Positions 38,526-60,702 are shown, counted from the stretch's first letter. The stretch is 64,000 nucleotides of DNA from an uncultured Bacteroidales bacterium (GCA_900316125.1 ONBO01000003.1:418-64417), one strand, 5' to 3'. Numbers and translations are program-made. The notes: generated by a model not told the origin, from the sequence alone.

Positions 38526-40269
<1,744 letters not shown>

Positions 40270-40422
40270 CGAATGAGCCAAAATAAAGCTTGCTTGATTT
40301 TGGAGAATGAGGTCAGCATTTGGAGCAAAGCAGTCTTTTAAGAGTGCTTTGCCGAGCGTGAGTAACTTCACGAACATACGTAGTATGTGAGTAAAGTACG
40401 AATAAGCGAGAGCCGCATTCCA

Positions 40423-42105
40423 TTAGAATATATATCCGTACGCCACAGTGGCGCTAAAACGAAAGATGTCATCATTATTCAGCACCCACTGGTACTGACC
40501 AATGGCGTTAAACGTAAATTTGTGATGTTTCTTAAGTGTATATGCCAGTGATGTCCGTGCATTGGCGACAAAACGTTGATAAATCTTCTGTTCCAGACCA
40601 ACATTAGCGGAGAGCGAGGATGTCCAGTTAAGCGTCTTTTTAACAAAAAGCGCCGTCACACCAATGGTTGGCCCCACGTATATTGTCTCCAATCCAGCCA
40701 CTTTGTTCCATGTAACATTGGCGGAAGAGTTAAGTGTTACATTCTTCGTCTTAAACATTGCACTGTGCATGAGCGCCGTGTTTAGCATCATTGAGTTACC
40801 TACATCCGGAATACTGTCTCCGTAACGGTCATTAGTACACTGGAAAGAGGCGTTGGCGCTTAGAGACTGAGAACAGAAATCAGTACTCTCAACATTCCAC
40901 ATAGCAGAAAGATACGCATTATGAGACAACTGGGAAAAGTTGAGCGTGTCAAGATTCTCCGTTATGTCATACTGATTTATGTAGTCAAACTGAGAACGAA
41001 CGTTCTTATGCATCTGAAAGTTTGAATACGAGGCAGAGAAATTCATTTTCTCATTAGGAATGTAGGACCAGTTCAAAGACCCTACAAACCTGAGGCTTGT
41101 ATTCGTCTGAGTCTTACGTATATTGTCTCGTTCCACACCCACACTCGCCGTAAGATTCATCTTGTCACTTAGAAAAGCGGAAGCCACGTTCAATGTATAA
41201 TTCTCAAAATCAGAATTGAAATAATATGCGCCAAGCGATGCGTAATCAGGGTCAACATGCTCAAAGGCAAAACCTATGGATGTCTTTTTAACCTGATAAG
41301 AAAATCCGCACTTGGCGGCTTGGTAAAAGCCCAACGTAGCACCATTGGGAATGCGAAAATCATGTTCAAGAAAACTAAAGGCATACTCAGCAAACAGATG
41401 CAGAGCCTTAAACAGGGTGAACCCCACTTCAACATTGGCGGCGACGTTACGCTGAGGGGTTATTCCCAGACTGTCAGGTTTCCACTTGAGGGAGTTTTCA
41501 TAATCCTTTGCTATGAAAACACTGCCGCCCACATAAAATATCCTGTGATCATATCTGAGTTTTGCCGCCGCTCCCAAACGCTTGTAACACGCCGCAACAG
41601 TTGTCTGGGTGTTGTCAGGGTCATATTCCACAGCTTTCTGTAGCCTGCCGAACATTATTGACGCAGTCCAGTGTTCTGGTGTCAAATCAACACCTGCACC
41701 AGTAAACTGATGTCCGCCGAGCGTGTACGGGGAATAACTCATTGAAACGTCACCAATATGAGCCGAAGCCCACTTGTATGACGGATGTATGCCAAATCTG
41801 TTAGGCATATTAGGATACGCGTATGTGAAGCCTGAATTGGTGAAATTAAAGTTAAATGGTAAATCTATGAGTCTGAACAACTTGAAATTAACGCTCCCCT
41901 GTATCATGTAAGTCCACGGCAGATGCCCGTACATCTTACTCGCGGCATAATATGTGCCTGATGCAGACACGCCACCGCTTACCTTAAACAGCTCTTTTTT
42001 TGAGAAGTTCCGTTTCATATCCTCAATGCGTATGGTCTGGGCGGACAATGAGAACATTCCCAATGCCAGCATCAAAGCCACTATGCCACAACGTAAGACC
42101 TGCAA
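40423..42105 (-). CDS. Outer-membrane beta-barrel protein, family unknown (operon gene 8)
   Basis: 560 aa. A TTG start gives a good signal peptide (MQVLRCGIVALMLALGMFSLSAQ). The sequence has an alternating beta-strand pattern rich in aromatic residues and Gly. The C-terminus, YGYIF, has the aromatic terminal residue typical of OMPs. The start is 4 nt after the preceding stop. Confidence 0.6.
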   Translation of the reverse strand: MQVLRCGIVALMLALGMFSLSAQTIRIEDMKRNFSKKELFKVSGGVSASGTYYAASKMYGHLPWTYMIQGSVNFKLFRLIDLPFNFNFTNSGFTYAYPNMPNRFGIHPSYKWASAHIGDVSMSYSPYTLGGHQFTGAGVDLTPEHWTASIMFGRLQKAVEYDPDNTQTTVAACYKRLGAAAKLRYDHRIFYVGGSVFIAKDYENSLKWKPDSLGITPQRNVAANVEVGFTLFKALHLFAEYAFSFLEHDFRIPNGATLGFYQAAKCGFSYQVKKTSIGFAFEHVDPDYASLGAYYFNSDFENYTLNVASAFLSDKMNLTASVGVERDNIRKTQTNTSLRFVGSLNWSYIPNEKMNFSASYSNFQMHKNVRSQFDYINQYDITENLDTLNFSQLSHNAYLSAMWNVESTDFCSQSLSANASFQCTNDRYGDSIPDVGNSMMLNTALMHSAMFKTKNVTLNSSANVTWNKVAGLETIYVGPTIGVTALFVKKTLNWTSSLSANVGLEQKIYQRFVANARTSLAYTLKKHHKFTFNAIGQYQWVLNNDDIFRFSATVAYGYIF

Positions 42106-42109
42106 CCTG

Positions 42110-44968
42110 CTACTTAATTATCAGTTTAAATGTCTGTCTTATACTGTTTTCCGGCAGCATTAGTACCATGATGTACATACCAGCTGTCAGAGACAAGCTC
42201 ATCCGCTCAAAGTACTTGTCACTTCCTGCAAGGTTGAGCGTTTCAGCCACCTGAACACCTTTCACAAAATCACAGATGCGGATCTCTGCGTCAGACGCTT
42301 TGGACAGCTCCAGCGATACGGACACATTACCGTCTGACGGATTCGGTGATACGGAGAATCTTTTAATTGAGAGCCCCTCGTCATCATAATCACCAGCAAT
42401 AAACGGAGCGTCAACAACCTCCACTTTCTTGTAAACAGTCTCCTTGCAACCGTCATGATAGCTGCTCATACCCAGCATATACTCTCCTTCTTCGCTAAAC
42501 CTCATATCCAGATACCTATCTCCCTCCTCCACTATCTCTATTCCCGCATCTTGAGGATAGTGCCACTGGTATGAAGTAAAATTATCCCTTGTAATATTCG
42601 CTAGACGCACCAGGCCGTTCTTCTTGACGGTTGAGGCCACAATCCAGTCACAAGACACCTCTTTGGGTGACTTTATAACCTGCATGGTTGACGTGTCACT
42701 GCACAAACCGTCTGACGCTATTACCGAGTACAATCCGCCATCCGTTACATCTATTGAATCTCCATTAGTTAGATACTCATCACCACGATACCACTTGTAA
42801 ATATTTTCTGGAGCAGGCTTGTCAACTCCCACACGTACAGTCTGACCTTTGCAAACTGTTATCTCATCGGGGATACTCACCTCTATATTGCCATGCTGTG
42901 ACAAACTGACGTCCGTACTACTCGTACGGTTGGCAATATCTATTGCTGTGACGTTGTAGTCTCCAGCTCTAAGGTCTTGCAGTTTCAGCGTATGATTTTC
43001 AACCTTGTAATTCTCAGAGTCATCATTAGAACTGACAGTAACGGAATACGGCGGCTCCCCGCCGTCCAGACTGACGGATATCATACCGTCAGAATATCCA
43101 TAGCAAGTGACATTACGTTTGTCAAGGTTAAGCGCTATTGGTTGATGTATGTCAATCTCTGATGAACCAGTACAGCCATTATGGTCCATGACCTCAACAG
43201 TATAATGTCCTGATTGCAAACTGTTATTCACTACATACGAGGAGCTGAACGGATATGGAATAATAACGTCACCCTCCACCTCGGCGTCATCAGAGCGCCA
43301 ACTGACAGAATACGGAGCACACCCGCCGGTCACATGATTAAAATTCAGCACTCCGTCTGGTTTGCCATATTGTGTAGCGTCCACTCCGGACACACTGAAA
43401 TCCAGCGGCTCGTTTTCAAATATCTCTATGGTTTTGCCATACTGTGCCTGACATCCGTTGCCGTCAATGACCGATAGTGTGTATGACCCTGCGTCCAATC
43501 CTGAGAACTGAACCGCATTTGACTGACGGTTCTTGTATTCTCCTTTTACTGACTGAAGTGTTGCCGTATATCCGCCTTTTGCATTGAGTACGCTGTATGA
43601 AACGCTTCCGTCTTTAGCACCAAAACACGTTATGTCACTTTTCCCTACATTTGCAATTTCAAGAGCGGGTGGTGCCGCCGGCATCGTAACAACCGCACGG
43701 TGACGGGGTGCTCCTGCGTAATACTCATGAAAGTTTCCATTCGTATCAGTCCATCCGCCGCTTATTTCAACCTTGTAGGTTTCAGGTAAAATATCATTAA
43801 ATACAGTTACTGTACTCACATTTGTAGTATCACATATTGGTTTTTCACCATCCAAAGCATTATCCTTTTTTACAATCAAATTGATATTACCTGAAGAAGC
43901 AACCTCTTTGGATAGTTTAACAATCAATTTCCCTTTGTCTCCAGCACATTTAGGTTCCACAACCTCAACATCTATACCTGGAGCGGATAATACTGGTTCC
44001 AACGTAATTGAACCTTCTGATTTTTTACACACAACAGATTCATCCATATTAATATATATCTTATCTCCATCAACAATCATCTGTTTAAATTTTTCCTCAG
44101 AGAACAAATCATATCCGTCAAAAGACAAAAATGGAGCGAAATAATCATCGCCATACAGCATAAAGGCAGTCAAACTCTTGAATGATGATTTTTGTTCGTT
44201 ATGTGTTACTGTGAACTGTGGTTTATATATTCTCTCAGGAAAACCAGGCGTCATCTCAAAATAAACTTCATCCTCTGATGGTAAATTCATTGTAACTCTA
44301 GAATCAGAATTCAACTTATATTGCCAATCACTATCAAATGCATACATTAAAATTCTATTGGGAATTACTGTGAGTACACTCTTAAATGTGCATTTTATTC
44401 TTGCTCCATCATAATTATATTGGAAGGCACTCTTACAGTTATACCCTAAACTTTGGAGCTCAATATCGTTTATTTTCCTTTCATAAGTGAAGGCATTTAT
44501 CTCAATTGGAGTGCCAACTTTAAAAATGAAAGTTGTTTGATTGTTTACCGTTTCATTCCTCAACTCTCTGCAACTACTACTTATTTCAAATGCTCCATAA
44601 TACGACCGAGTTAGATTTATTACATTACCCTCTTTTAAATAATGATTACCTACTGTTGCTCTAACAGACGGGAATGACCTTGATGACTGATTAAATGTAG
44701 ATGATTGTTGAGTGCCGACACCCATAAATGTTTGATTTAGATTATATTTAAAAATGTTTGACTTTGAATTGTGAGATATCCACCCTCCGTTATATTCCTC
44801 AACATATTCAGTGTCAAACTTTATTACATACTCCCCAAACGGAATATCCACATCATCTGAAAAAGAACTCTCCATTGCACAGCATCCAATAGGAATGACA
44901 CACATTGCAATTATGAACGATACAACATGCAATTTAATGTTGCTCTTTATGTTTTTTAAGTTTCTCAT
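42110..44968 (-). CDS. SprB-repeat cell-surface protein with type A T9SS C-terminal sorting domain (operon gene 7)
   Basis: 952 aa. It has repeated C.G..DG.(I/V)......GG..PY motifs (ITCFGAKDGSVSYSV, VTCYGYSDGMISVSLDGGEPPYSV). The tail FSVSPNPSDGNVSV...GMYIMVLML...FKLIIK is CTD-like. Its start overlaps the gene 6 stop (TAATG). Confidence 0.75.
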   Translation of the reverse strand: MRNLKNIKSNIKLHVVSFIIAMCVIPIGCCAMESSFSDDVDIPFGEYVIKFDTEYVEEYNGGWISHNSKSNIFKYNLNQTFMGVGTQQSSTFNQSSRSFPSVRATVGNHYLKEGNVINLTRSYYGAFEISSSCRELRNETVNNQTTFIFKVGTPIEINAFTYERKINDIELQSLGYNCKSAFQYNYDGARIKCTFKSVLTVIPNRILMYAFDSDWQYKLNSDSRVTMNLPSEDEVYFEMTPGFPERIYKPQFTVTHNEQKSSFKSLTAFMLYGDDYFAPFLSFDGYDLFSEEKFKQMIVDGDKIYINMDESVVCKKSEGSITLEPVLSAPGIDVEVVEPKCAGDKGKLIVKLSKEVASSGNINLIVKKDNALDGEKPICDTTNVSTVTVFNDILPETYKVEISGGWTDTNGNFHEYYAGAPRHRAVVTMPAAPPALEIANVGKSDITCFGAKDGSVSYSVLNAKGGYTATLQSVKGEYKNRQSNAVQFSGLDAGSYTLSVIDGNGCQAQYGKTIEIFENEPLDFSVSGVDATQYGKPDGVLNFNHVTGGCAPYSVSWRSDDAEVEGDVIIPYPFSSSYVVNNSLQSGHYTVEVMDHNGCTGSSEIDIHQPIALNLDKRNVTCYGYSDGMISVSLDGGEPPYSVTVSSNDDSENYKVENHTLKLQDLRAGDYNVTAIDIANRTSSTDVSLSQHGNIEVSIPDEITVCKGQTVRVGVDKPAPENIYKWYRGDEYLTNGDSIDVTDGGLYSVIASDGLCSDTSTMQVIKSPKEVSCDWIVASTVKKNGLVRLANITRDNFTSYQWHYPQDAGIEIVEEGDRYLDMRFSEEGEYMLGMSSYHDGCKETVYKKVEVVDAPFIAGDYDDEGLSIKRFSVSPNPSDGNVSVSLELSKASDAEIRICDFVKGVQVAETLNLAGSDKYFERMSLSLTAGMYIMVLMLPENSIRQTFKLIIK

Positions 44969-46032
44969 TATTTTCCGGCTTCAATTACATTCACCAACTC
45001 GTTAATATTAACGGTTAAGTCAGGCGAACCATTCTTGTATTTCTCGTAAATATTATGAGAAAGGATTAAATCACACTTTTGCGGTTCTGGAACCCAATCC
45101 ACTAAAACAACTTCTAAATATTCCAAATTATCACACTCACTTAAATCAATTTTCCGAATCCCGTGACAGTTAGATAATGCCACATTTTTAACGTTTTTTG
45201 CATTTGACATGTTTAATTCTTTAATCGAGAATTTTTCTACCGATAGAGATGTTAACAATGGCATATCAAGTTTTTCAAAACCATATATTGTAGGACAAGT
45301 GGAAGAATTGGATGTTAACGCAATACCTTCTATTACTGATTCAGATGAAAAAATCAATCTTATATGATTAGCCGTACTATTGCAATTAATATAGTTTAAA
45401 TTAATGATTCTAAGTGCTTTATTTCGACTAAAATCAACTGGTCTATCATAATAATAGTCATACTCTTCATCATAATAATCGAGATCTATATAAGCATAAT
45501 AATTAATTTCAGACATAATAACCTTAACATTTTTCAACAAAGAGGCATCTGCCTGATACCACTTGTCAAGCATCTCTATTTTTGACATTTCATATTTTGA
45601 CATAATGCCGTCATTGTTCAAGTCAAGACCTTTACTTATGTAATATGAATCCCCTCCTGAAGGCAAGGTTACAAGTACAACCAATGTATCCTTATACACC
45701 TTCCCATTATTTTCACAATACAAAGAAACGTATGTGGGGTCACTGCTTAATGAGGTTATTTCACACTGTTCATTGACAGAAAGTACAGACGGGTCACACG
45801 GAGTGAATTTAATGTTATAATCTACTGGATTCTCTATCTTCTTATAATCCACATATATATCCGGCTTAATTACATCACCCACTTTGCATTTAATCACACG
45901 TGGCACAAATACTACCGTATTGTTAACTGGCAAGTATTTCTTTTGTGGAGTGTCATCCTTCTTCTCACACCCGCACAACAGCACAGCACCTGCCACTAAT
46001 AGAATAACTGCTCTTAAAATTGTTTTGTTCAT
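44968..46032 (-). CDS. Lipoprotein with Ig-like, EF-hand/dockerin-like and LRR-like segments (operon gene 6)
   Basis: I place the start at ATG 46032 (MNKTILRAVILLVAGAVLLCGC is a lipobox). The sequence has DLNNDGIMSKYEM and C-terminal LRR-like repeats (L..L.......I..L....). Confidence 0.6.
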   Translation of the reverse strand: MNKTILRAVILLVAGAVLLCGCEKKDDTPQKKYLPVNNTVVFVPRVIKCKVGDVIKPDIYVDYKKIENPVDYNIKFTPCDPSVLSVNEQCEITSLSSDPTYVSLYCENNGKVYKDTLVVLVTLPSGGDSYYISKGLDLNNDGIMSKYEMSKIEMLDKWYQADASLLKNVKVIMSEINYYAYIDLDYYDEEYDYYYDRPVDFSRNKALRIINLNYINCNSTANHIRLIFSSESVIEGIALTSNSSTCPTIYGFEKLDMPLLTSLSVEKFSIKELNMSNAKNVKNVALSNCHGIRKIDLSECDNLEYLEVVLVDWVPEPQKCDLILSHNIYEKYKNGSPDLTVNINELVNVIEAGK

Positions 46033-46060
46033 TTCTGTTTTGTTTTTATTTAGGTTAATA

Positions 46061-47278
46061 TTATTTGTTATCACTTTTATCCAATTGCTTTCCATTGAGG
46101 AACTGGTCAAACTCTGATTTGTGTACCCTGTAAAATTCTTTGTTTACGGTAATAGGCTTCTTGAAGATTTCAAGTTCATTCAACTTGTCGTTGCCGTAAA
46201 TAAACCGGTCTAGCAGATAAATCATCTCAACAAATCTGGATTCTACAGAACCCTTGTGTTTTTTCTTGTATTCCTCACTGTCAACAGGACAACCAAAGAC
46301 CATGTGCTTTAAGGCAGCAATATCTTCTATATTATCTGGGAATGGATTCAGTCTTCCTCCTGCAGCATCTAAAATAACCATTTCACAATAATACACGGTC
46401 TCTTCAGACGGTGAGCAAAACAACGTTTTTTCGCCATAGAATTTATTCTCCTCGTTTAACCTGACTATTATAACAAAGTCTTCACACTGCATAAAGAGAG
46501 ATCCGTCGATAAACTCATACCTGATGTTGTGTCTTTCCACAAATTCCTTAAAATAGAATTTCTCTTTATAAATTGACAAATTAACATACGGGCATATCAC
46601 CCCCTTTTTCTCCATCAAACTGAGAATGTCTGGGTCTGGATTTTTCAAATCAAGTTCATACACATCTTCCTTCCCTGTATATTCTTTTTTGAGCGATTTC
46701 TCTATATTGTCGGTTTTCAAATAACGGCGTCGAAGGATAATCTTTTCAATATATCGTTTAGGAATAAATGTATATGAATCATATCCGTCATAGTGGCTTC
46801 CCCCTGATTTTTCTATAACCTCGCTTTGCGGTATGGTCTTCAGTATCTCCTTCTGAATGTCTGTCAACTCCAGTGTGTAGCCTGAATGGGAAAGGATGAC
46901 ATATTCCGGGAATATCTCCGTCATACTCCACAAAAAACAATCTGCCTCCTTCTCAAACTTAACCTCGTATCCGTTTATAACCATTGTGACATAATAGTCG
47001 TAAAAAGCCTCAACTTCTGACTTGCGGATTAAGTGGATAGGATACCAGTAGTCTTTATTATCATTGGACTTAGCCACATGGTCTGGTTTTACAACTACTG
47101 TACCTTTTCCATTATACCATCCGTCAGACAAGACCGATGAATTTTCAGCAAAGCGACACATATCAACAAATGTTACAGTCCCCACTCTTGCTTTTTTTTG
47201 TATCATTGGTCGGCATTCTCTACCATATATTAAAACAGAACCTCTATCATTAAATATATTATTAATAACAATATTCAT
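46061..47278 (-). CDS. Hypothetical cytoplasmic protein, 405 aa, no signal peptide (operon gene 5; immunity-protein candidate)
   Basis: An intact ORF starts 8 nt after the gene 4 stop. I recognise no motif. It is very AT-rich, like the 3' half of gene 4. Confidence 0.5.
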   Translation of the reverse strand: MNIVINNIFNDRGSVLIYGRECRPMIQKKARVGTVTFVDMCRFAENSSVLSDGWYNGKGTVVVKPDHVAKSNDNKDYWYPIHLIRKSEVEAFYDYYVTMVINGYEVKFEKEADCFLWSMTEIFPEYVILSHSGYTLELTDIQKEILKTIPQSEVIEKSGGSHYDGYDSYTFIPKRYIEKIILRRRYLKTDNIEKSLKKEYTGKEDVYELDLKNPDPDILSLMEKKGVICPYVNLSIYKEKFYFKEFVERHNIRYEFIDGSLFMQCEDFVIIVRLNEENKFYGEKTLFCSPSEETVYYCEMVILDAAGGRLNPFPDNIEDIAALKHMVFGCPVDSEEYKKKHKGSVESRFVEMIYLLDRFIYGNDKLNELEIFKKPITVNKEFYRVHKSEFDQFLNGKQLDKSDNK

Positions 47279-47286
47279 AATTCCAT

Positions 47287-50200: not shown

Positions 50201-51876
50201 CCGTTGGCTCCGTCACTGTTGAGCAGCAGCGCTGCTGTCTCATAGAACTTCAGCGGTGAGTCAAATGTAAACACGCCGCTGTCGTCCTTCTCAAAGGTCA
50301 CGGTCCCAAGGTCTCCCCTTATCCCGCTCAGCTGGCTCTCGCTTATGTATTTGCCAGTCTGGCGCCCTAACGGTGTGAACTTGTACCTGCCTGTAGGTCT
50401 GCTGTCTGTGTCCGTCTCCTCCTCAATCTGAACCAGATTACCATCATTGTCCTTGACCCTTATAGGGAACACAGGCTCGCCCTGCTCGTTCCGAGGCGTT
50501 TCTATTGTGCCTATAACGCTCCCGTTCTCATCTTTAAGGGTAAGCGTTCCTGTGACGCTGTCATACTCAGCTCCGCTTACGTCTGTCAGGAGGAAACCAA
50601 CCGAAAGGTCTGGCAACACCACCCCGTTTTTGAGTCTCTTGCCACCGCCTTGCAGCAGCATGTCCGTGCCGCCTATCTGAGAGCCTGACATGTCACACCT
50701 GACTTCCGTATAGCCAGATATCAGCTGCCTGGATGCGTTCACCTGTATGTTCCTGATATCTACCGTGAAATCCACGCCTATGTACGGTATGAACATATAC
50801 CCCTCTCCGCTGAAGGTGGACCCGCTCTGCGTGAGCGATGTGACAACAACCTTAAAACCTCCGCCCACGGTTATGGTGTCTCCCACCTCCAGATGCTCCG
50901 CAGGGGTGAGGTCTGTCACCGTGTAGCTGTCCTCTCCGCAGCGTGATATGCGCTCAGGGCTCTTGTCAAAGGGGTCCCTGTCTTCTTTACGCTTGACCGT
51001 AACTGTGTCATGAACATCATACCCGTCCGGATGCCTGACATCAAATGTGAACACCTCACTGTAACCTCCGTTTGTAAAATGCACAGTGCCCTCCACGCTG
51101 TACGCCCTGACACACCAGCCGTAACGCTTACCCTCCTCCAGTTCAGGTTCTGACAGGGAGTACGTCAGGCTGGTGGATGCCGTCTCTGTCTGGTATATAG
51201 TCTGCGAGTAGTTATATGCTGACGTGGGGTTGGACAGCGTATCCGCTATCTCCTTGATGGTAATCTCATACATTACTCCGGCTCCTGAATAGCTGTGACG
51301 GGGCTGCCACTGCAGCTGGAAGGAACGTGCGCTCAGCGGACGCATGACTATGCCGTTCTTAGGATACAGCAGTGCTGGGGGCTTGTTTATTGTGAGGTTA
51401 GTGACTGTGGTGTACGGTGTGGAGACTACAACTCCCGTGTGATACTCCACTGCCTCAAATGTGAACGTGGCGAGACCTTCGGGCATCGCCCCCTGGAACA
51501 TGGTGCCTGTGACATCAAGATTGCGAAGCTCAAAGTACGGGGAGAGCTCTGCGGCGCCAAGGCGTTCTGACATACCTGGGTATAGCGTGACAGCCTCAAA
51601 CACGGCCGACGGCTTTGTCCTCAGCATTAGTCCGTTCTGACACTTGACGGTCATGCGAAGGCGAACATCAATGCCTGTACTCATCACATCACGGTTAACA
51701 AGCACAACTGTGGCTCGGTCTTCAAAGCCGCTCACATAGTCTGACAAGTACACTGACGGAGACGTAATCTGTGCGCTGACCTGTACAGGGAAGGATGATA
51801 CTCCCTGCGCAGACACACGCACAACATATAACAGTAGTGATAATGTTAATATTATTTGTTTACTGAATCCTTTCAT
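47287..51876 (-). CDS. Giant exported protein, 1529 aa: N-terminal Ig/Fn3-like region, metzincin-like HExxH domain and AT-rich C-terminal module (operon gene 4; polymorphic-toxin-like)
   Basis: It has a signal peptide (MKGFSKQIILTLSLLLYVVRVSAQG). HELGHGKYRLRHTF is encoded at about 49438-49473 and is followed by NLMDY. Its ATG directly abuts the gene 3 stop (TAAATG). Confidence 0.7.
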   Translation of the reverse strand: MKGFSKQIILTLSLLLYVVRVSAQGVSSFPVQVSAQITSPSVYLSDYVSGFEDRATVVLVNRDVMSTGIDVRLRMTVKCQNGLMLRTKPSAVFEAVTLYPGMSERLGAAELSPYFELRNLDVTGTMFQGAMPEGLATFTFEAVEYHTGVVVSTPYTTVTNLTINKPPALLYPKNGIVMRPLSARSFQLQWQPRHSYSGAGVMYEITIKEIADTLSNPTSAYNYSQTIYQTETASTSLTYSLSEPELEEGKRYGWCVRAYSVEGTVHFTNGGYSEVFTFDVRHPDGYDVHDTVTVKRKEDRDPFDKSPERISRCGEDSYTVTDLTPAEHLEVGDTITVGGGFKVVVTSLTQSGSTFSGEGYMFIPYIGVDFTVDIRNIQVNASRQLISGYTEVRCDMSGSQIGGTDMLLQGGGKRLKNGVVLPDLSVGFLLTDVSGAEYDSVTGTLTLKDENGSVIGTIETPRNEQGEPVFPIRVKDNDGNLVQIEEETDTDSRPTGRYKFTPLGRQTGKYISESQLSGIRGDLGTVTFEKDDSGVFTFDSPLKFYETAALLLNSDGANGGGRIYRRMSNCDPYYDVPWLFIGEGCTEQVRARLKLTGSGKKEIPKPEDLQFIVSDEGGVTVLPSTYNADGTYSVTVAASQADSRQTVHAVYMVGDRCYQLGMLDVDTRAPMRAGVCLVNLGGSYSASQIEAGLNSIYGRVGVTWNVTEENGFSYPKDSIAYLFDSKSKALELYNSRQKNLNRAFETYLGDRYDGKTCYLFMMPANGSGSKRELAGFMPRGEQYGYINTDAVKSENLPAVIAHELGHGKYRLRHTFDSEYGKGAESKKGKTDNLMDYAPTPSRATHIAKWQWNQIHNPALLTELWEKDEDSEWVRDAVKQLAGYDYAYIRKCGSDANRRETGIDVVETYKAYGCRDGEWSKVIEITDREFFSNANFVISEDFVDAVVILDNGIVVSACDPSSNVSNICENASIDNKELTSIVEKCFSDFVSGQLKELAEYASKGQQFEILYNGKAYYLDNGVVKQDNVTYEDIRQGILGDESESKIRIYKKNGIWQLKVVGINKNFKSQNIGVVNYGELSDEICRSTNQWLKEENVTSLSEKTKNHIEDEFPGGEQVQVRGNETFFKIAASGIEMVSEVLKTGEFQQKIYNDNSESIIKLPGLLTGTSEAALRDVTDVTSIVYTGYELVVSEEKREEVRQSLSAIADAIGEDKSVLFKLLADIALEEATGLTSDEYRELGLNETDGGRKRNLGSRGTTRSVLTIVAGSVFVKQLPKVAEHIASKLSLHKRLSSFAKVDAKVLKAWEGLETVDITKVNKNICNILKKEGLTDDDIGKLIQINRLASTGDASDELVMLTRAISEKCFELPKSGEKVVKYVEAVKFEYRFIKNNSTEINGCILKASDYSLNNVELSQLIVDIGLHYDNSPFLNSTGYVKIETTMTDDMVRNVKRPYEAKEYLNNVEKKLPQTYTGVLGHKETDLIVPEFYIGEKDVRFPLQKGATATQYNANGVVENVYELIEVNEKLIWISK

Positions 51877-54800
51877 TTAGTACTTGTAATAAACCTCTAC
51901 ATCTGATGTCTTTATGCCGCCCGGAATTGTATATGAAACAAACGACTTGTATTTTCCTCTTGGCATGGACGAAACGGAATATTTTATAAGCCGCTTTTCA
52001 TAATCATTCAGGGATCCGCCTTGCACCCAGCGGTTCATAACCAGACCTAATAAATCATAAAAGTCACTTGAATAATACAGGCTCAGTCTGTATATGTGGG
52101 GGAATACGCTTAACATTCCACCCTCATCACCATTTGATAGGCAATGTGAATAATACGGGCTTACAGTAATTGCATTAAGCGGCGGCACTCCAATAACAGA
52201 TGTATCCCTGTTGACATTGAATTCTGAGGAAGAATATCCTGAATACAGATTAGGGTATATATTCTGTTTGTAATAAGCGTCATCACCTGTTGAACGTACA
52301 GTGACAAGTGGTTGCGCTGACCACTCTGACGCAAACAGGTCAACAGCGTCAAAACTTTCATCCGCCTTTGCAGCTAAACCGAGCAGCACAGTGCTATAAC
52401 TATTCTCTATGTCCCAGAACCCGCGAAGCGACATGGAATTCACCTTCTGCCTGAACGTCTTGTACTTACTTGTGCGGAATGCGTAACTGAGAATTGATTT
52501 CCCAATATCCGTACGCATCTCACTGTCCGCAACATTATGCTTGGTGCTGATATCCGCATTAACACCTGACAGCTTTTTATAGACAGCCTCATTTTTCACA
52601 GATTTTACCTCTGCGTCCTTAGGCCTGCCGCATAGATTGACATTTAACTCCGTTCCAACTGGGAGTTGTGACGGTACGTCATATTTAATAGTTTTTGAAG
52701 ATTTATCATACTTAATCTCCTGCGAGGCAATAATGTCTCCATCTTCATTTATAAAATCGGCAGTAAACATAAGGGAGTCAGCGAATAGATATGTCTGACC
52801 CTGCTTTAACCGGATGTACCCATGTCCGTACTCTTCCTTATGAAAATTACGCTGATTTCTGACAGGATATGAATACTCTATGTTGCGATCAGGAATGTAA
52901 TCTGGTGCTTTTCCTGTCACAAACACAACCTCTCGTTTCTCCTGACTCGCCTGCCCTGATGTATAGACTGTGCTCCACACCCCTTCCTTGTACTGACGGA
53001 ATCCTACAGAGACATTTATCTTAAACGTGGTTTCAGGGTCAAGAATCTCATGCGGATAAAAACTGTATTTATCCTTCTCATCATTCCAGCTCCATTCACC
53101 CTGTACAATGGCACCAGTCTGCATGTTTGTCAATGTGCAGTTATCTATAACCGCCATCATGTTTACAAATTCCTCGTCCAGCCTTGTCTCAAAAGGTTTG
53201 TTAATTCCAATGTTGAACGCCACCTGCGGAACAGAGAACACATCTACGTCTGATTCAGAAGGAGAAATGTCACCTATCACCTCCATGTCAAGCGGAGACT
53301 GTCCGGGAACAAGCAGATTACACTTTTCTCCAAGTTCAAACTTGAAATCAATACTGCCCTTTATCAAGCCGCCCAAGATGCTAAAATTAACACCCATCTT
53401 GCCTCCGAACCACGTTGGATTTGGAAGCATTCCCTGAAGCAACACAGCCGCGCCACCCTTGATAACCGGGATTTTGGCCTTTATAAACCATAGATTAACT
53501 CCTACTCCGAGTTCACCTGCAAGATAAGCGTACAACTGACCCGTGGCGTACCAGCCATCCATTCCTATGGTTCCGCTACGCCCCGCACACTGCGCATTCT
53601 CATACTGTCTTAGCATCAGGTCAAAACCTAAACCAGCCTGGAATCTGGCGTATAGAATAATACACCAAAGCTCTCCTGTGTCAATTGACAGACTTGAACC
53701 AAAGGCGAAGCCTTTACCCTTGGAAAATGCATCATTATTTCTGCTGACACTAAGGCTGCTTAGTTCAGACGAGCCAAACACTTCAGCAATCTGAGGCGGC
53801 ACAGGTAACGCATCCGGCATATTACACCCGGCCATCATGTATGCAGTGGTCTGAATATGGACAATATCTAATGCATTGAGCTCCACACCTATCGGGTTTG
53901 ATGGTGTTCCTATATGCAGATACCACTCCTTGGGCTCAATATGAAGAGTTACCCATCCTGCACGGCCTTCCGCACCCACTCCCTTTAGAAACCCTTCCAT
54001 AAAGTTTACGTATATTTCAAAATTGGAGTGCAGTACATCATTTACGAAATCATACTCTATGGCAAGATTAGCCACAATTCCATTAGCTGACGGCCTCTTT
54101 CTTACATCTTCATCTGTTTGTGACAGCATGTTCTTTGCTCCGCCCATATTAGACAAAGACGCACTGTCAAGAAATTTGCCCTGCCCGTAAAAACCTACTC
54201 TGTTAACGCCTCCATACCTGTTGAACTCCATCTCAAGCATAAGTTTAAGGCTTGCGACCTCCTGACTTGGAATAACAAGTATGACTCCGGCCTTGAAACC
54301 AAGCCCGCTGTTATTATCAGGTATGTAATTATAGGCGTTTGAATCAATAACACCCAAGCCTGAACGTTTCATACCGTATGACATACCACCAGCAAAGCCC
54401 CCAATGTTTACATATCCCGCACATGGTATAGGTGGCGTAAATGCTGCACTTGCGTCCACATACCAATATGAATCTCCGTTAACCCTGCCAAACACAGCAC
54501 TTGCTTTTATTACAAACTTAACCCCTGCAGACACCTCCAAATCAAGACTTCCTGCATATCCGTTGCCGTAAACTGGATCATCATAACGGGCAGAGGCTCT
54601 GCCTCTTAACTTCACTACTCCTCCTATTTCCGCATATACATCTATCTCCCTCAGTTCAAAACGCTTGAACCTCCACTGCTGAATGCCATCATCCTCCTGC
54701 AAATCACCCAACAATGCGAAACTGGTTGAAGCGCTGGTCACTTGTATGTCCATCTTAAGACCTGCATAGAAGTTAAGTGAACGGTCATTGGCTGTAAGAC

Positions 54801-56232
54801 CAAGCTCTGTGATGGAGACTGGCATATTCATAACAGATGATTCATTCCTATAGCCAAAGTAGTCCACGCTTACATACGGCTGCTCAGTCTGAATATGCAA
54901 ATTCTGGAAAACAACCCCCTTAAATGATGCGATGCTGTCTCCCTTGTCACTTTTTACAGACAGGTCCAGATTGCCGCACAGATTTGCCTCTGGACGGAAA
55001 ACGCCTTCACGCACCGCCAACTTAATGTATGAACCAGGCATGATGTTTGCCTGCGCTTGTAAAACGTCAAAAGATACGGTATCACCAACACTGACCGTCA
55101 TGGAGTAATTATTGTCAATATCCCACATACCTTCATACTCAAAGGCGGAGCTCTTCTGATCTGCTATAGGGATGCCTATGCGTCCGGCAAACGCAGCCTC
55201 TGTAAGCGTATTGGCCATAAGCCCCACTCTGAACTTGTCCACAGAGAATCGCCATCCTGATGCGTTGCCGTCAGAAAAGTCTAAAATAGGGGTCTCAGCC
55301 ACAAAAAGCCCGCTGATACCGTTTTCATCTATCAAAAGGTCATTGGCTGAAAAAGTAAGTCTGCCGCCTTTTTTACCCTTAAACTGCTCCGGCACTGTTA
55401 CCAGGATGCGGCCTGCGTAAAAGCCTTGCCAGATATTAACATCTGGCAGACCGTAGAGGTAGTTTGCTTCATAGTTCTTAGGAAATGTGACATTGCCGTT
55501 TCTGCGATGGCTGAAATCAAACACAACGTCCTCACACGCAAAATCAAAACCGTCCAACCCCATTATGGCAAATCTCGGCAAAGTGGCCTCTGCCAGCCAG
55601 TCTTCCCAATCATCAGCCTTGACCTGAAACGAGGCTCTTACGGCACCTCCATTGGGCTTGCCATCCTCGCTTACTGTCTGCATTATGGATTTGCTGAACT
55701 CCACATCGGCGGCTATTCCAAACCCTGTCACACCCTGACATGAAATATTAGCATAAGTCAAGTCGGCCATCTGACCTGAGTTGGAGATTCCGCCTCTCAA
55801 AATAATTTTTGCGTTATTGTCAAAAATTGGCATCTCAACATCTTGCAATAGAACTAGCCTTGCATCTCCAACAATATCACCATCATTTGACAACATGATT
55901 CCCTCCGCTCCAAAAAACAGAGGGATGCTGTCCTCCGGGCTGTCAGCACTTTTACTTGGTATGAATATACGTGCAAAGATATCCATTGAACAGTATTCCT
56001 TCGTGCTCCGCACCTTTGAAACTGCCAACGTGACGGTGGTGTTACCCATTGTGTGGCGGATTCCCATTGGAAGGTTATTACGAACGCTACCTGGGTCAAG
56101 TTTTGTTACAAAATTCCCGTTGTCGGTCACTTTCTGCAAATATGACCTTGCCTGCTCAATAGTGTTTGATGAGGCATATACAGGAATTGCAATAGCCGCC
56201 AATATGATTAGTTGTAACAGTCTTTTAGTCAT
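51877..56232 (-). CDS. Giant exported beta-rich protein, 1451 aa, family unknown (operon gene 3)
   Basis: It has a signal peptide (MTKRLLQLIILAAIAIPVYAS). The ORF is long and intact and starts 9 nt after the gene 2 stop. I recognise no catalytic motif. Confidence 0.6.
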   Translation of the reverse strand: MTKRLLQLIILAAIAIPVYASSNTIEQARSYLQKVTDNGNFVTKLDPGSVRNNLPMGIRHTMGNTTVTLAVSKVRSTKEYCSMDIFARIFIPSKSADSPEDSIPLFFGAEGIMLSNDGDIVGDARLVLLQDVEMPIFDNNAKIILRGGISNSGQMADLTYANISCQGVTGFGIAADVEFSKSIMQTVSEDGKPNGGAVRASFQVKADDWEDWLAEATLPRFAIMGLDGFDFACEDVVFDFSHRRNGNVTFPKNYEANYLYGLPDVNIWQGFYAGRILVTVPEQFKGKKGGRLTFSANDLLIDENGISGLFVAETPILDFSDGNASGWRFSVDKFRVGLMANTLTEAAFAGRIGIPIADQKSSAFEYEGMWDIDNNYSMTVSVGDTVSFDVLQAQANIMPGSYIKLAVREGVFRPEANLCGNLDLSVKSDKGDSIASFKGVVFQNLHIQTEQPYVSVDYFGYRNESSVMNMPVSITELGLTANDRSLNFYAGLKMDIQVTSASTSFALLGDLQEDDGIQQWRFKRFELREIDVYAEIGGVVKLRGRASARYDDPVYGNGYAGSLDLEVSAGVKFVIKASAVFGRVNGDSYWYVDASAAFTPPIPCAGYVNIGGFAGGMSYGMKRSGLGVIDSNAYNYIPDNNSGLGFKAGVILVIPSQEVASLKLMLEMEFNRYGGVNRVGFYGQGKFLDSASLSNMGGAKNMLSQTDEDVRKRPSANGIVANLAIEYDFVNDVLHSNFEIYVNFMEGFLKGVGAEGRAGWVTLHIEPKEWYLHIGTPSNPIGVELNALDIVHIQTTAYMMAGCNMPDALPVPPQIAEVFGSSELSSLSVSRNNDAFSKGKGFAFGSSLSIDTGELWCIILYARFQAGLGFDLMLRQYENAQCAGRSGTIGMDGWYATGQLYAYLAGELGVGVNLWFIKAKIPVIKGGAAVLLQGMLPNPTWFGGKMGVNFSILGGLIKGSIDFKFELGEKCNLLVPGQSPLDMEVIGDISPSESDVDVFSVPQVAFNIGINKPFETRLDEEFVNMMAVIDNCTLTNMQTGAIVQGEWSWNDEKDKYSFYPHEILDPETTFKINVSVGFRQYKEGVWSTVYTSGQASQEKREVVFVTGKAPDYIPDRNIEYSYPVRNQRNFHKEEYGHGYIRLKQGQTYLFADSLMFTADFINEDGDIIASQEIKYDKSSKTIKYDVPSQLPVGTELNVNLCGRPKDAEVKSVKNEAVYKKLSGVNADISTKHNVADSEMRTDIGKSILSYAFRTSKYKTFRQKVNSMSLRGFWDIENSYSTVLLGLAAKADESFDAVDLFASEWSAQPLVTVRSTGDDAYYKQNIYPNLYSGYSSSEFNVNRDTSVIGVPPLNAITVSPYYSHCLSNGDEGGMLSVFPHIYRLSLYYSSDFYDLLGLVMNRWVQGGSLNDYEKRLIKYSVSSMPRGKYKSFVSYTIPGGIKTSDVEVYYKY

Positions 56233-56241
56233 TTCATGCTG

Positions 56242-57162
56242 CTATTTAATGTCAATTGGAGCCGTATAACCCACAGCTCCTGTATTGAGACGGTATTTAA
56301 TAAAATACGAATATTCAAGTCCGGGCTTGACATCTCGGTCAAGATATGACCTGTAATCTCCTGCAAGTATTTTAATGACCCTTACACCTGCTGAATCATG
56401 CCTGTACACTTCAAAACACTTAAAAGACTCCGTTGTCTTTGGTTTCCAAAGAATCCAGATGCCAATGCCAGGCTCCTTCTGCAGTTTAACAGAAATGTCT
56501 GACTTTTTCTGTGTGACAGCCTTGACTGCTACAGGTTGGGATTCTGATGATTTATTGCTACTGCTGTCAATTGCTGCTATTGAGTAGATGTATTTTGTAC
56601 CAAAATCTGAGTCATTGTCTGTGTATGACAGGCTGTCTTTGGGAATGTCTATGTAAACAGTGTCATTGAGGCTGTCTGTACGTCTCATCCTGTAAGTCTC
56701 AACATCATCTGGAGTGGCGCAAACCCACCTTAATGTAACACCGTCTTTTGTTGCATTAAATGATGTGAAGCATGGTGTCATTGGAGGTATGACATCTGGC
56801 TTTGACAGTCTCACAACCGCACTCTTATCTGATAGGTTGTACCTTTCATCTATGCCAGCAATGGCGTAACAGACACTGCGGTTAAGCATCTTTATGTTGA
56901 CAGTATCAACATAAGCTGTATCAGTTACAACTTCACTGTTGACTTGTATTAAGTGTCCGCCATCGATGTCTGACCTGTAAAGGCGGTAGCCCAATATGTC
57001 AGCATCTTTGTTGGCGTTCCAGCGCAGACGCACCACACCAGCGGTGTCTATCTCGCCTATCAAGCCTATTGGTACCATTGGAGGCACACTGTCTATAGTC
57101 TGGACAAGCACAGGCAGGGATAACTTACGGCTGCCGTCTTTGCCTACTGCGGCTATCTTCAA
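56242..57162 (-). CDS. Fn3-repeat protein, 306 aa; probably the C-terminal part of a split gene (operon gene 2)
   Basis: It has three units of the pattern D..PP..P.GL......G.V.L.W......D(I/V).GYR(L/M)YR....Y.Y.I.A(I/V)D..(S/G)N.S. It begins at TTG in the middle of an Fn3 domain and has no signal peptide. Confidence 0.5.
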   Translation of the reverse strand: MKIAAVGKDGSRKLSLPVLVQTIDSVPPMVPIGLIGEIDTAGVVRLRWNANKDADILGYRLYRSDIDGGHLIQVNSEVVTDTAYVDTVNIKMLNRSVCYAIAGIDERYNLSDKSAVVRLSKPDVIPPMTPCFTSFNATKDGVTLRWVCATPDDVETYRMRRTDSLNDTVYIDIPKDSLSYTDNDSDFGTKYIYSIAAIDSSSNKSSESQPVAVKAVTQKKSDISVKLQKEPGIGIWILWKPKTTESFKCFEVYRHDSAGVRVIKILAGDYRSYLDRDVKPGLEYSYFIKYRLNTGAVGYTAPIDIK

Positions 57163-57176
57163 ATAATTTGTAGGTT

Positions 57177-57300
57177 TTGTTATTGTTTGAACATCAGTTT
57201 CAGGTGGGCGATATCATAGAGATCGAGGGATACCGCGGCAGGGTTTTGGAGATCGGTGTGCGCTCCACAAGGCTGCTGGGCTCCGGCAATGCCGTAATCG
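57177..57300 (+). pseudogene. About 40-codon fragment of an MscS-family mechanosensitive channel gene, antisense to the operon
   Basis: The plus-strand translation LLFEHQFQVGDIIEIEGYRGRVLEIGVRSTRLLGSGNAVI fits the MscS beta-domain consensus (F..PF.VGD.I.I.G..G.V..I.LR.T.(L/I)....G..V.I). It is bounded upstream by TAG (57171-57173). No further channel sequence flanks it. Confidence 0.55.
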
Positions 57301-58151
57301 CCAAACACATCAATGCCTCTTATTTTATAGTGATATGTCTTATGGTTTGCGGCAAGTGAGTCAGGATAGGTGACAAAATCTTTGCCGTCAATATTCATCA
57401 GCGGTATGTCTGAAATAGGACTGAACGTTATTCCGTCTTCTGATTTCCGGATTTCAAATGATGTGTATTGTGTCTTAACGTCCTGGACATTCCATGTCAG
57501 CATCACAACTCTGTCTGAGAACCGTCCTTTGAAAAATGTAATTTTGGGTAAATTTTGTTGTAAAGAATCATCTATATAGACATAGCCGTATTTTATATCA
57601 CGGCAGATGACTGTGTCTGCTGGATATATACGGTACAGATAACTGCATCCTTTCTTAACATCGGAGTCTGTCATACCCCACCCTGCCATACACGCCGCCT
57701 CATAATCCATCTCTGACGCATACATGGAAGTCAGGAATCGCTGTTCCTGCTCCCTGCTGATATTCACTAATGCCGATATTGAGCCCTGGCTTTGACCGCC
57801 TACGCTGAACGAATCTCCATAAAGAGCCTGCGCAATTATGGCCGCATAATTGCTTCTCTTTGAGATTTGTTCCCAGTTATTCAATGGTTCAGCCTTAACA
57901 TGGCTGTTAAAAATTTGTTTGACTGGTGAATCAACAAGCTGTCCGTTCTCTTTTACGACATACCTTTCCACCATAAAACCGCACTCATTAGTGCGACGCC
58001 ATGACGAGGCATCACTTGCAGACCAACGAAGTTTCACTCCTACGTCAGAGAATTTACCCTTTACCGCTATATAGACGCTGTCTGACGCGTGAATCTTTAA
58101 AAGAGAAAATATTAATATACCTAAAAGTAGAGTAAAATTTTTCTTATACAT
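57180..58151 (-). CDS. Exported Fn3-containing protein, 323 aa; probably the N-terminal part of a split gene (operon gene 1)
   Basis: It has a signal peptide (MYKKNFTLLLGILIFSLLKIHA) and Fn3-like segments (VKLRWSAS, VMLTWNV...YHYKIRGIDVFGDYG). The last ~35 codons are the antisense reading of the MscS-like fragment. Confidence 0.6.
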   Translation of the reverse strand: MYKKNFTLLLGILIFSLLKIHASDSVYIAVKGKFSDVGVKLRWSASDASSWRRTNECGFMVERYVVKENGQLVDSPVKQIFNSHVKAEPLNNWEQISKRSNYAAIIAQALYGDSFSVGGQSQGSISALVNISREQEQRFLTSMYASEMDYEAACMAGWGMTDSDVKKGCSYLYRIYPADTVICRDIKYGYVYIDDSLQQNLPKITFFKGRFSDRVVMLTWNVQDVKTQYTSFEIRKSEDGITFSPISDIPLMNIDGKDFVTYPDSLAANHKTYHYKIRGIDVFGDYGIAGAQQPCGAHTDLQNPAAVSLDLYDIAHLKLMFKQ

Positions 58152-58190
58152 TTGACTTTATTGTTATAACTTAGCTTCTGAATCTTTCCC

Positions 58191-59735: not shown

Positions 59736-59796
59736 AATTGTGATTTTAAGTTTATTGTATTTTGCAAAATTACTAAATAACGAGCGCAAATGCAAA

Positions 59797-60702
59797 TCAG
59801 AATTTGAGTTGCATTACCATTCGGCATTTCTCGTCATCTGGTATGCTGTAGTCTATCCAGTGAATGTTGAAGCCACGTTTCTCCATGCCGCGCAGCCATG
59901 TCATCTGGCGCTTTGCAAACTGATGTATGGCTATCTCAAGGCCGCTGAACATTTCAGAGTATGAGAGTTCACCAATAACATACTGCGTTACAAACTTATA
60001 CTCCAAGCCGTAGTATTTAAGGCTATCCGGAGCCACTCCTCTGTCTATCAGTCCTCTGATTTCATCCACCATACCAGCGTCAAGCCTCGCTTTCAGACGC
60101 TCAGTTATGCGGCGGCGGCGCGCCTCACGGTCTATGTCAACACCAATGATAAGGCTGTCAATAGGCTCATAATCATTGGCTTTAGCTCCATTTTCTGCAT
60201 AGTAGGTTTCAATTTCTATGGCACGTATGGCACGCTTAGCGGTATCCACATCGGTGGAGTTATGGAGGGTCTTGAAACCTTTAAGAATCTCCGTGAGTTC
60301 TGCAAGGCTCTTGTCTTTAAGGCTCTCACGCAGAGCAGGGTTCTCTGGCACCTCAAGCAGGCGGTATCCCTTTAGTACAGACTCAATGTAAAGTCCTGAG
60401 CCTCCGCAGAGTATGGGCTGCACCCCACGGCTCACAATATCGGAGTAGGCATCGTGGAAATCATGCTGATACTCAAATATATTGTACCGTTCGCCTGCAT
60501 TACGTATGTCTATGAGGTGGTACGGTATGGGCTTGCCATCAACCACATAATCTGCGAGATCCTTGCCCGTGCCTATATCCATGCCACGATACACCTGACG
60601 GGAGTCTCCGCTGAGTATCTCCCCGCCTGTTAGATACGCCAAACGGCAAGCAAAGGATGTCTTCCCGCTTGCCGTAGGTCCTATAATGGTTATAAGCTTC
60701 AT
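59797..60702 (-). CDS. miaA: tRNA dimethylallyltransferase
   Basis: 301 aa. It has a P-loop (GPTASGKTS) and the motifs RQVYRGMDIGTGK and VPYHLID-like (IPYHLID). Confidence 0.92.
   Translation of the reverse strand: MKLITIIGPTASGKTSFACRLAYLTGGEILSGDSRQVYRGMDIGTGKDLADYVVDGKPIPYHLIDIRNAGERYNIFEYQHDFHDAYSDIVSRGVQPILCGGSGLYIESVLKGYRLLEVPENPALRESLKDKSLAELTEILKGFKTLHNSTDVDTAKRAIRAIEIETYYAENGAKANDYEPIDSLIIGVDIDREARRRRITERLKARLDAGMVDEIRGLIDRGVAPDSLKYYGLEYKFVTQYVIGELSYSEMFSGLEIAIHQFAKRQMTWLRGMEKRGFNIHWIDYSIPDDEKCRMVMQLKF

Follow-up and report, generated by a model that had tools for sequence, protein, structure and literature searches.

The subject of this study is a block of eight minus-strand genes (g1 to g8) at positions 40423-58151 of a 64,000-nt stretch of DNA (the window; GCA_900316125.1 ONBO01000003.1:418-64417) from an uncultured Bacteroidales bacterium, a Paludibacteraceae metagenome-assembled genome (MAG). 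The question raised by this locus is which system, if any, it encodes. An initial annotation, made from the sequence alone, had assigned it no recognisable system identity and had suggested an undescribed delivery or antagonism system. The first claim did not hold: the operon is a divergent member of the TANFOR class, known since 2020 (Jana et al., 2020). The second was right as to antagonism, as the locus has the form of a polymorphic toxin gene with an immunity-like gene next to it, and wrong in calling the system undescribed. The identity had been missed because the TANFOR domain of g4 is too divergent for the curated model TIGR02542. Very probably the locus encodes a TANFOR-class toxin-immunity pair of the polymorphic kind, accompanied by a set of conserved accessory genes.

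The TANFOR proteins, 339 of them in 5.8% of genomes, were recognised by Jana, Salomon and Bosis (2020; Life Sci Alliance, PMC7073777) as forming a polymorphic toxin class of Bacteroidetes. In that report, the C-terminal toxins include AHH, NUC, EndoU, BaCT and other domains, with immunity genes downstream, and both toxicity and immunity were demonstrated for the BaCT domain. SprB, Fn3, PKD and Por_Secre_tail domains were found enriched near TANFOR genes, and export of the toxins by the T9SS (type IX secretion system) was proposed and left untested there. A TANFOR protein of T. forsythia was detected in a vesicle proteome (PMC10682907). In the later literature, searched with incomplete coverage, TANFOR was merely cited as a trafficking domain and no account of its export or of accompanying machinery was found; a literature search of likewise incomplete coverage gave no description of the g3 or g8 families.

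The toxin gene is g4 (47287-51876, minus strand), and its 1529-aa product was assigned to the class from its modular architecture. Residues 1-165 (51382-51876, minus) consist of a Sec signal peptide, MKGFSKQIILTLSLLLYVVRVSAQ, read directly from the sequence, and a divergent TANFOR domain located by BLASTP and hhalign. An Fn3 domain follows at residues 172-267 (51076-51363, minus; Pfam fn3 at 26.2 bits, cut-off 25), and then a conserved segment at residues ~309-400 (50677-50952, minus), here called the linker, with the pattern GDxxxVGGxFxVxV...SGxG...IxVN in alignments with TANFOR proteins. Residues 36-393 were aligned by BLASTP (E = 2e-18) with the TANFOR-Fn3-linker region, residues 198-582, of the long TANFOR protein P0093, which itself matches TIGR02542 at 74.8 bits (cut-off 67) over residues 196-339. 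The g4 N-terminus was also aligned by BLASTP with P0094, a protein that matches TIGR02542 below the cut-off; when a family alignment of 20 orthologous N-termini including g4 (A2) was compared with P0094 using hhalign, the match reached a probability of 99.6% (E = 2e-24). TIGR02542 was matched at E <= 0.01 by 6 of these 20 N-termini (best 7e-11). The BLASTP and hhalign alignments to P0093 and P0094 thus place a divergent TANFOR module in g4. At about 285-370 of the A2 alignment, between the first Fn3 domain and the linker, most orthologues have a second Fn3 domain with conserved flanking cysteines, which is missing from g4.

Residues 689-851 of g4 (49324-49812, minus) were assigned to a zincin-type metallopeptidase from the motif HELGH (residues 802-806) and from weak hidden Markov model (HMM) matches, to Peptidase_M57 (20.8 against 21 bits) and Reprolysin_4 (17.5 against 22 bits), both below the cut-off. 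This region had been annotated as a metzincin-like HExxH core followed by a compositionally foreign C-terminus. The HELGH motif and the fall in guanine-plus-cytosine (GC) content hold; the metzincin signature, HExxHxxGxxH plus a Met-turn with a family HMM above its cut-off, was not matched in full, and the zincin HExxH core and a conserved NLMDY are present. In the zinc motif, HELGHGKYRLRH, the third histidine lies one residue later than in HExxHxxGxxH and the glycine is missing. Since the pattern AHE[LVI][GA]HG-x5-HTFD...N[LV]MDY is kept in 13 of 16 long orthologues, the peptidase is part of the scaffold and not of the variable end. Other polymorphic toxins have peptidases that release the toxin, and on that analogy the C-terminal toxin of g4 is probably freed by this one.

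The C-terminal part of g4 was divided by an exhaustive HMMER search with residues 880-1529. Residues ~990-1295 (47992-48909, minus) form a conserved pre-toxin module (module A), which occurs at about residues 1100-1400 of many proteins of 1200-1700 aa, each with an unrelated tail after it. Residues ~1296-1529 (47290-47991, minus) form the predicted C-terminal toxin module (module B, ~235 aa), of an uncharacterised family with the shared motifs FPxPxxGxKxxK, PQTxTGxxG and PE[YF] and with K95, T188 and E204 invariant (numbered as in alignment A5). Some unrelated small proteins also end in module B; two of them start with DUF4280 (PAAR-like), and one such PAAR-like protein is encoded next to VgrG and a Tle1-like effector in a type VI secretion system (T6SS) cluster. 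The PAAR-like T6SS effectors have their C-terminal module in common with g4 (32-36% identity) but differ from it in their entire trafficking part, g4 having no PAAR or DUF4280 domain. Seventeen tails, taken either from behind module A or from the ends of orthologous proteins, had a mean column identity of 16%, and one Endonuclea_NS_2 and one AHH nuclease are among them. As judged from these comparisons, the C-terminal end of g4 is an exchangeable predicted toxin domain.

A different use of g4 may be considered here, that of a secreted zinc protease directed at a host or the environment, for virulence or nutrient acquisition, and not at other bacteria. The conserved HExxH core would suit it, as would predicted anti-eukaryotic domains such as VIP2, which Jana et al. 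(PMC7073777) list on some TANFOR proteins. However, the peptidase sits in the conserved scaffold, the variable end is common to PAAR-like effectors of a T6SS cluster, and a gene for a cytoplasmic partner follows the toxin gene, so that this use of g4 is very improbable.

That partner gene, g5 (46061-47278, minus), encodes a 405-aa cytoplasmic orphan and is a candidate immunity gene from its position and the lack of a signal peptide. Only three homologue clusters were found, 73-87% identical, and in close relatives the same g5 gene follows the toxin gene. From its position, cytoplasmic location and narrow distribution, g5 is the putative immunity protein. An immunity family common to all module-B toxins was considered and rejected, since g5 has no similarity to the genes downstream of the others, one contig being too short to contribute.

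The toxin end and g5 belong to a low-GC cassette (44000-49200; 29-43% GC against 44-56% in the flanks) that runs from g4 residues ~890-1529 across the whole of g5 and g6 into g7, of which it takes in the first ~320 residues. Within g4, residues 1-890 have 52-56% GC, and the fall at about nt 49200 (about residue 890) is to 33-43% there and to 29-43% over the cassette as a whole. By its composition this block is a foreign, swapped cassette. The N-terminal 2.6 kb of g4 (49200-51600) lie ~10 GC points above their neighbours (~44%) and ~20 above the cassette; with a GC step on each side of this segment, g4 has two compositional boundaries and not one. When positions 46467-58198 were aligned with the sister strain at locus L081, identity was 97.5% over the start of g1, 81.7% over g2, g3 and the g4 N-terminus, and 90.4% over the g4 C-terminus and g5, with no alignment over ~390 nt (49782-50173); this mosaic suggests recombination inside the operon. 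The other complete gene of the cassette, g6 (44968-46032, minus), encodes a 354-aa lipoprotein with the lipobox LLCGC seen in the sequence. It had been called an Ig/LRR (immunoglobulin/leucine-rich-repeat) lipoprotein, of which the lipobox stands and the Ig/LRR label does not: no family was matched in Pfam or NCBIfam, the best match being LRR_EndoS at E = 0.15. No g6 homologue was found among 80 related loci. Conceivably g6 stands in for the PKD lipoprotein of related operons, which was not found in the window.

The gene before g4, g3 (51877-56232, minus), encodes a 1451-aa exported all-beta protein (cluster C0), as indicated by its signal peptide, its AlphaFold2 model and homology. Long TANFOR proteins contain its relative as their last ~1,400 residues: g3 was aligned by BLASTP with residues 587-1922 of P0093 at 26% identity over 1415 aa (E = 9e-111). 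On this homology, g3 is the counterpart, here called the body, of what long TANFOR proteins hold in one polypeptide. In these fused proteins the TANFOR-Fn3-linker module is joined directly to the body, with the linker immediately before it, and in two such loci (L094 and L096) the order is barrel, TANFOR-body fusion (2306 and 2434 aa, respectively) and Fn3 protein, followed by small proteins with a T9SS C-terminal domain (CTD). As the two parts are fused in some genomes, the g4 TANFOR module and g3 are inferred to interact physically where they are encoded separately. Full-length homologues of g3 were found in Niastella, Filimonas, Prevotella, Bacteroides pyogenes and Tenacibaculum, and more distant ones measure 2000-2450 aa, one being named 'TANFOR domain-containing protein' at its source. 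No Pfam, NCBIfam or PDB relative was found. The AlphaFold2 model of residues 21-1200 (predicted local distance difference test score, pLDDT, 81; predicted template modelling score, pTM, 0.43) consists almost entirely of long antiparallel hairpins. No fold was assigned, because Foldseek searches of PDB and BFVD gave only matches at TM <= 0.17 (LptD, ushers, ApoB100, SlpA, SprA and phage fibres). An Rhs- or Tc-like shell was considered for g3 and rejected, as none was among the Foldseek matches.

Of the GTDB species genomes scanned, at least 581, from five orders (Cytophagales, Chitinophagales, Sphingobacteriales, Flavobacteriales and Bacteroidales), carry the body family, with Flavobacterium, Chitinophaga, Pedobacter and Prevotella among the carriers. 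To score its partners, the open reading frames (ORFs) of 80 loci were clustered and searched with family HMMs, and counts were taken from the 44 loci, spread over five Bacteroidota orders, with full 10-kb flanks. The body was present in 44/44 of these, the SprB/CTD protein in 43/44, the Fn3 protein in 42/44, the TANFOR protein in at least 28/44, a ~450-aa PKD-repeat lipoprotein in at least 19/44 and the g8-type barrel in at least 13/44; the last three counts are lower bounds because the flank often ends within the SprB or TANFOR gene. The usual orders are PKD-barrel-body-Fn3-SprB-TANFOR and body-Fn3-SprB-(PKD-barrel)-TANFOR, and in most genomes the PKD lipoprotein gene is directly beside the barrel gene; the order in the window is Fn3-body-TANFOR-g5-g6-SprB-barrel. 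In another Paludibacteraceae MAG (L064) the order is barrel-body-SprB-TANFOR, with no Fn3 gene or PKD lipoprotein within 10 kb, and loss or relocation of these two partners may be a Paludibacteraceae trait. Because the gene set recurs across the phylum, the tight arrangement of the eight ORFs is not due to chance.

The partner genes also account for the neighbourhoods reported for the class: the enriched domains of Jana et al. (PMC7073777) map onto them. For lack of any domain model, the body and the barrel could not have been picked up by that enrichment analysis. The operon agrees with described TANFOR toxins in the N-terminal TANFOR-type domain with Fn3, the Sec signal, the exchangeable C-terminal toxin, the small gene downstream, the neighbours with SprB repeats, T9SS CTD and Fn3, and the restriction to Bacteroidota. 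It differs in that the g4 TANFOR domain falls below TIGR02542 detection, that module B is not among the toxin domains listed in the report, and that the PKD lipoprotein, one source of the reported PKD enrichment, is missing from the window. The zinc peptidase, module A, the ~1,450-aa body, the 26-strand barrel and the TANFOR-body fusions are likewise not described in the parts of the report consulted.

Related operons carry recognisable toxins and immunity genes. At locus L093 (Cytophagaceae DM2B3-1, 1-4608, overlapping the end of L002), an 1810-aa TANFOR toxin ends in Endonuclea_NS_2. Behind it come a 231-aa gene and Imm49, then an orphan Endonuclea_NS_2 fragment of 117 aa and its 233-aa partner, and lastly the PKD and barrel genes. 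By its gene content this is a classic orphan toxin/immunity array.

Several points nevertheless weigh against reading the window operon as a toxin-immunity system. The evidence is wholly computational. At the N-terminus, g4 gave no match to TIGR02542 (cut-off 67 bits) at E <= 0.01, and its residues 1-200 none at E <= 1. At the other end, module B has no Pfam or PDB match. As for immunity, g5 has no homology to known immunity families in Pfam, NCBIfam or PADLOC, and is unlike the genes downstream of other module-B toxins, these toxins being ~32% identical. Among the accessory genes, the g3 model has a pTM of only 0.43 and matches known folds at no more than TM 0.17; with flanks of only 10 kb the barrel counts are minimum values; no PKD lipoprotein was found in the window by tblastn or HMM search; and the Fn3 gene is disrupted in the source assembly. 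Lastly, long TANFOR-body fusions extend only ~70-200 residues past the body, with no recognised toxin domain, and the ~760-aa TANFOR proteins of Chitinophaga are too short for the peptidase and toxin modules. The apparatus may therefore do more than deliver toxins, or serve primarily for something else.

Such a function could be that of a surface adhesin, a motility component or an envelope structure, with toxin domains as occasional add-ons and the operon here serving adhesion. The SprB, Fn3 and PKD domains are typical adhesin modules, and both the TANFOR proteins without a recognised toxin and the tandem SprB-like paralogues of Flavobacteriaceae loci could be accommodated. Yet the predicted toxin domain of g4 is common to T6SS-type effectors and is followed by a cytoplasmic orphan, orthologous operons have nuclease toxins, Imm49 and orphan cassettes, and a compositional boundary marks off the cassette; a chiefly adhesive role was accordingly judged improbable. 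The paralogues in question (cluster C6, ~430 aa, one to four in tandem) lie between the Fn3 and SprB/CTD genes in the Flavobacterium and Tenacibaculum loci L038, L059, L062, L068, L075 and L078-L080.

A further challenge to a toxin-immunity operon comes from g1 and g2. These are the N-terminal fragment (g1, 57180-58151, minus; 323 aa; positions 8-296 of the C1 HMM) and the C-terminal fragment (g2, 56242-57162, minus; 306 aa, with Fn3 repeats; HMM positions 374-689) of one exported Fn3 protein of ~690 aa (FN3/C1). They are split by a 98-nt segment (57194-57291; GC ~58%) that is unrelated to the 222 nt it replaces and has no match in related loci. In related genomes the Fn3 gene is intact (677 aa). 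Sister assemblies with an identical g4 and an intact Fn3 gene match the window at 100% identity over 38000-57193 and at 99.8% over 57292-61743, and at L087 the same two values, 100% and 99.8%, were obtained on the two sides of the segment. The split is private to the source assembly and not a feature of the system; the segment stems from faulty assembly (a chimeric join) or is a private lesion or indel. The split gene and the absent PKD lipoprotein would also be found in a locus that is decaying or misassembled and no longer functions. Such a remnant is hardly credible given that the sister assemblies keep the Fn3 gene intact, with 100% identity over 19 kb, and that the other ORFs of the operon are full length, with end-to-end family HMM matches.

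With a toxin-immunity operon as the preferred reading, the next question is how g4 would leave the cell. The 952-aa product of g7 (42110-44968, minus) was identified with Pfam and NCBIfam as a SprB-repeat protein with a T9SS type A CTD at residues 873-952 (SprB 45.5 bits; Por_Secre_tail, PF18962, 31.5 against 27; Ig_7 29.9; TIGR04183 32.4 against 23). No match to this CTD (Por_Secre_tail or TIGR04183) was found in g1/g2, g3, g4, g6 or g8. The HMM of its cluster (C2) matched residues 349-956 only, and the N-terminal ~348 residues (43925-44968) are lineage-specific, of low GC and within the cassette of the toxin and g5. This N-terminal third may be exchanged when the toxin and g5 are, and might act in targeting. 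Like the SprB/RemA adhesins of the T9SS, g7 has SprB repeats, an Ig domain associated with CHU_C and a CTD that the T9SS recognises. Unlike these, g7 has 952 aa (against more than 6000 aa in SprB), a type A and not a type B CTD, no adjoining PorP/SprF-like gene, and a lineage-specific N-terminal third in a foreign cassette.

The last gene, g8 (40423-42105, minus), encodes a 560-aa outer-membrane beta-barrel (cluster C5), identified from an AlphaFold2 model (pLDDT 84, pTM 0.72) with 26 strands, no plug and no periplasmic domain. Its C-terminus is ...YGYIF, and at least 1374 homologues were found, all unnamed. In a Foldseek search the best TM-score was 0.53, to MtrB (6r2q_B), followed by usher pores (0.41-0.48) and the barrels of TonB-dependent transporters. 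The large barrel form is shared with MtrB, LptD and the usher pores, and the PKD lipoprotein gene beside the barrel gene recalls LptE and LptD. In contrast to these systems, g8 has no sequence similarity to them, and cytochromes, an usher plug, usher N and C domains and the LptD jellyroll are absent. As the TM-scores are moderate, the modelled resemblance to MtrB, LptD and ushers would be one of form, not of membership. By the same analogy, a wide barrel without a plug, together with an adjoining lipoprotein gene in most genomes, has the form that would be expected of a protein conduit.

Two routes of export may be weighed on these findings. In the first, g8 and g3 would serve as a dedicated export route for g4, which is possible though on balance doubtful. 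A wider proposal, that the conserved module (barrel, PKD lipoprotein, body, Fn3 protein and SprB-like T9SS cargo) constitutes a previously undescribed outer-membrane export or delivery pathway for TANFOR proteins, is put forward just as tentatively. In the second route the toxin would be exported by the T9SS only, through the SprA translocon, riding on g7 or by recognition of the TANFOR domain, which would leave g3 and g8 to act at the surface as anchors or receptors and not as a conduit. This fits the bona fide type A CTD of g7, the SprB/CTD gene beside the TANFOR gene in 43/44 fully flanked loci, and the T9SS encoded in >95% of TANFOR genomes according to Jana et al. (PMC7073777). But g4, g3 and g1/g2 have no CTD, a conserved 26-strand barrel without a plug is hard to account for as a mere anchor, and T9SS-dependent secretion of TANFOR proteins is a hypothesis only, not known to be demonstrated by experiment; export by the T9SS only was thus considered unlikely.

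In the mechanism proposed for the operon, all products except g5 would cross the inner membrane via Sec, g8 would insert in the outer membrane, and g7 would be exported and anchored by the T9SS and provide cell contact. The toxin g4 would dock on the g3 body by its TANFOR/linker module, as the fusions suggest, and would reach the surface through or beside the g8 barrel, or riding on T9SS cargo. The HExxH peptidase would then release the C-terminal toxin, which would act in the cytoplasm of a competing bacterium, and g5 would neutralise the toxin in the cytoplasm of the producer. If the wider proposal is true, the conserved module would be effectively a new Bacteroidota secretion system, cooperating with the T9SS yet separate from it; the body would then have a new fold and carry or ensheathe the toxin, with the TANFOR-Fn3-linker module as its docking signal.

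The logic recalls contact-dependent growth inhibition (CDI) and two-partner secretion (CdiB-CdiA-CdiI), in which a giant exported beta-rich protein, a dedicated barrel and an exchangeable toxin are combined with an immunity gene downstream. Orphan toxin/immunity cassettes, as in CDI, are also seen in relatives of the window operon. The components differ, however: the g8 model has 26 strands and no POTRA domain, whereas the Omp85/TpsB barrel has 16 strands and POTRA domains; a two-partner secretion (TPS) domain, filamentous haemagglutinin (FHA) repeats and the VENN motif are absent here, with no relevant Pfam or NCBIfam match in any of the genes; and the parts of carrier and toxin are divided between two polypeptides, g3 and g4.

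These results bear on the class as a whole. With the body family in at least 581 species genomes of five orders, the TANFOR class is much wider than the curated model detects, and many of the carrier species are from gut, oral, soil and marine communities, competing at close range. Two large families that lack annotation, the 26-strand barrel without a plug and the all-beta protein of ~1,450 aa, accompany the TANFOR toxins and are undescribed candidates for the TANFOR export route. Module B, exchanged with T6SS effectors, adds an uncharacterised family of predicted toxin domains, and the conserved genes make the possibility of a further toxin-delivery route in Bacteroidota directly testable.

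The remaining claims of the initial annotation were re-examined with the layout of the operon. Eight ORFs on one strand with almost no spacing had been noted, and the re-check of ORFs and spacers agreed: 40423-58151 holds eight ORFs, all on the minus strand, with 66 nt of non-coding sequence in 17.7 kb. The spacer between g1 and g2 is 17 nt up to the first start codon, although the g2 frame is open back to 57213 and the frames overlap; those that follow are 9 nt (g2 to g3), 0 nt (g3 to g4, TAAATG), 8 nt (g4 to g5), 28 nt (g5 to g6, with the ATG at 46032 as the g6 start), a 1-nt overlap (g6 to g7, TAATG) and 4 nt (g7 to g8, with the TTG at 42105 as the g8 start). For g8, other gene callers choose a later ATG, giving 549 aa. 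The descriptions of g1 and g2 as a split exported Fn3 protein, of g3 as a 1451-aa beta-rich exported protein, of g5 as a cytoplasmic orphan, of g7 as a SprB-repeat protein with a T9SS type A CTD and of g8 as an outer-membrane beta-barrel were all sound. They are backed, respectively, by the intact 677-aa gene of relatives, by the signal peptide and all-beta model, by the lack of a signal peptide and the three homologue clusters, by matches above curated cut-offs and by the AlphaFold2 model. The gene neighbourhood had been proposed as a check, and the partner genes co-occur far beyond the source genome, the body family being found in at least 581 species of five orders; the suggestion thus withstood the refuting condition set with it, that of genes confined to one genome.

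In Pfam, NCBIfam and PADLOC scans the eight proteins matched only Fn3, SprB/CTD and, weakly, peptidase models, so that the reported absence of T6SS, Rhs, Tc and Sus hallmarks was upheld; in the eight genes and the flanking ORFs scanned there was no Hcp, VgrG or TssBC, no YD repeat, no TcA, TcB or TcC, and no SusC plug or SusD. Sequence searches of PDB with g3 and g8, with three parts of g4 (C-terminus, peptidase region and module B) and with the Fn3 protein and TANFOR family gave generic Fn3 matches only. A consensus scan for promoters and terminators, which is uninformative for a Bacteroidota operon, was the sole source of a putative operon terminator at 40231-40257 (minus), a hairpin with a 12-bp stem ~165 nt downstream of g8.

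Downstream of the operon, positions 32166-40148 hold an ordinary efflux locus, with genes for a TetR regulator, an outer-membrane efflux protein, an HlyD-type adaptor, an AcrB-type resistance-nodulation-division (RND) pump and an ABC-F ATPase; a similar set of TetR, outer-membrane efflux protein and adaptor genes is also near the long TANFOR-body fusion of L094. Two giant minus-strand ORFs, at 17319-22112 (1597 aa) and 22290-31607 (3105 aa), are unrelated to the operon and matched only Cadherin-like beta-sandwich models in Pfam, and are therefore probably large surface proteins. The protein P0101 was considered as the product of the 1597-aa ORF and rejected, as it is not the same protein. At 6898-8439 the window encodes a BspA-type leucine-rich-repeat protein (LRR_5, E = 2e-93).

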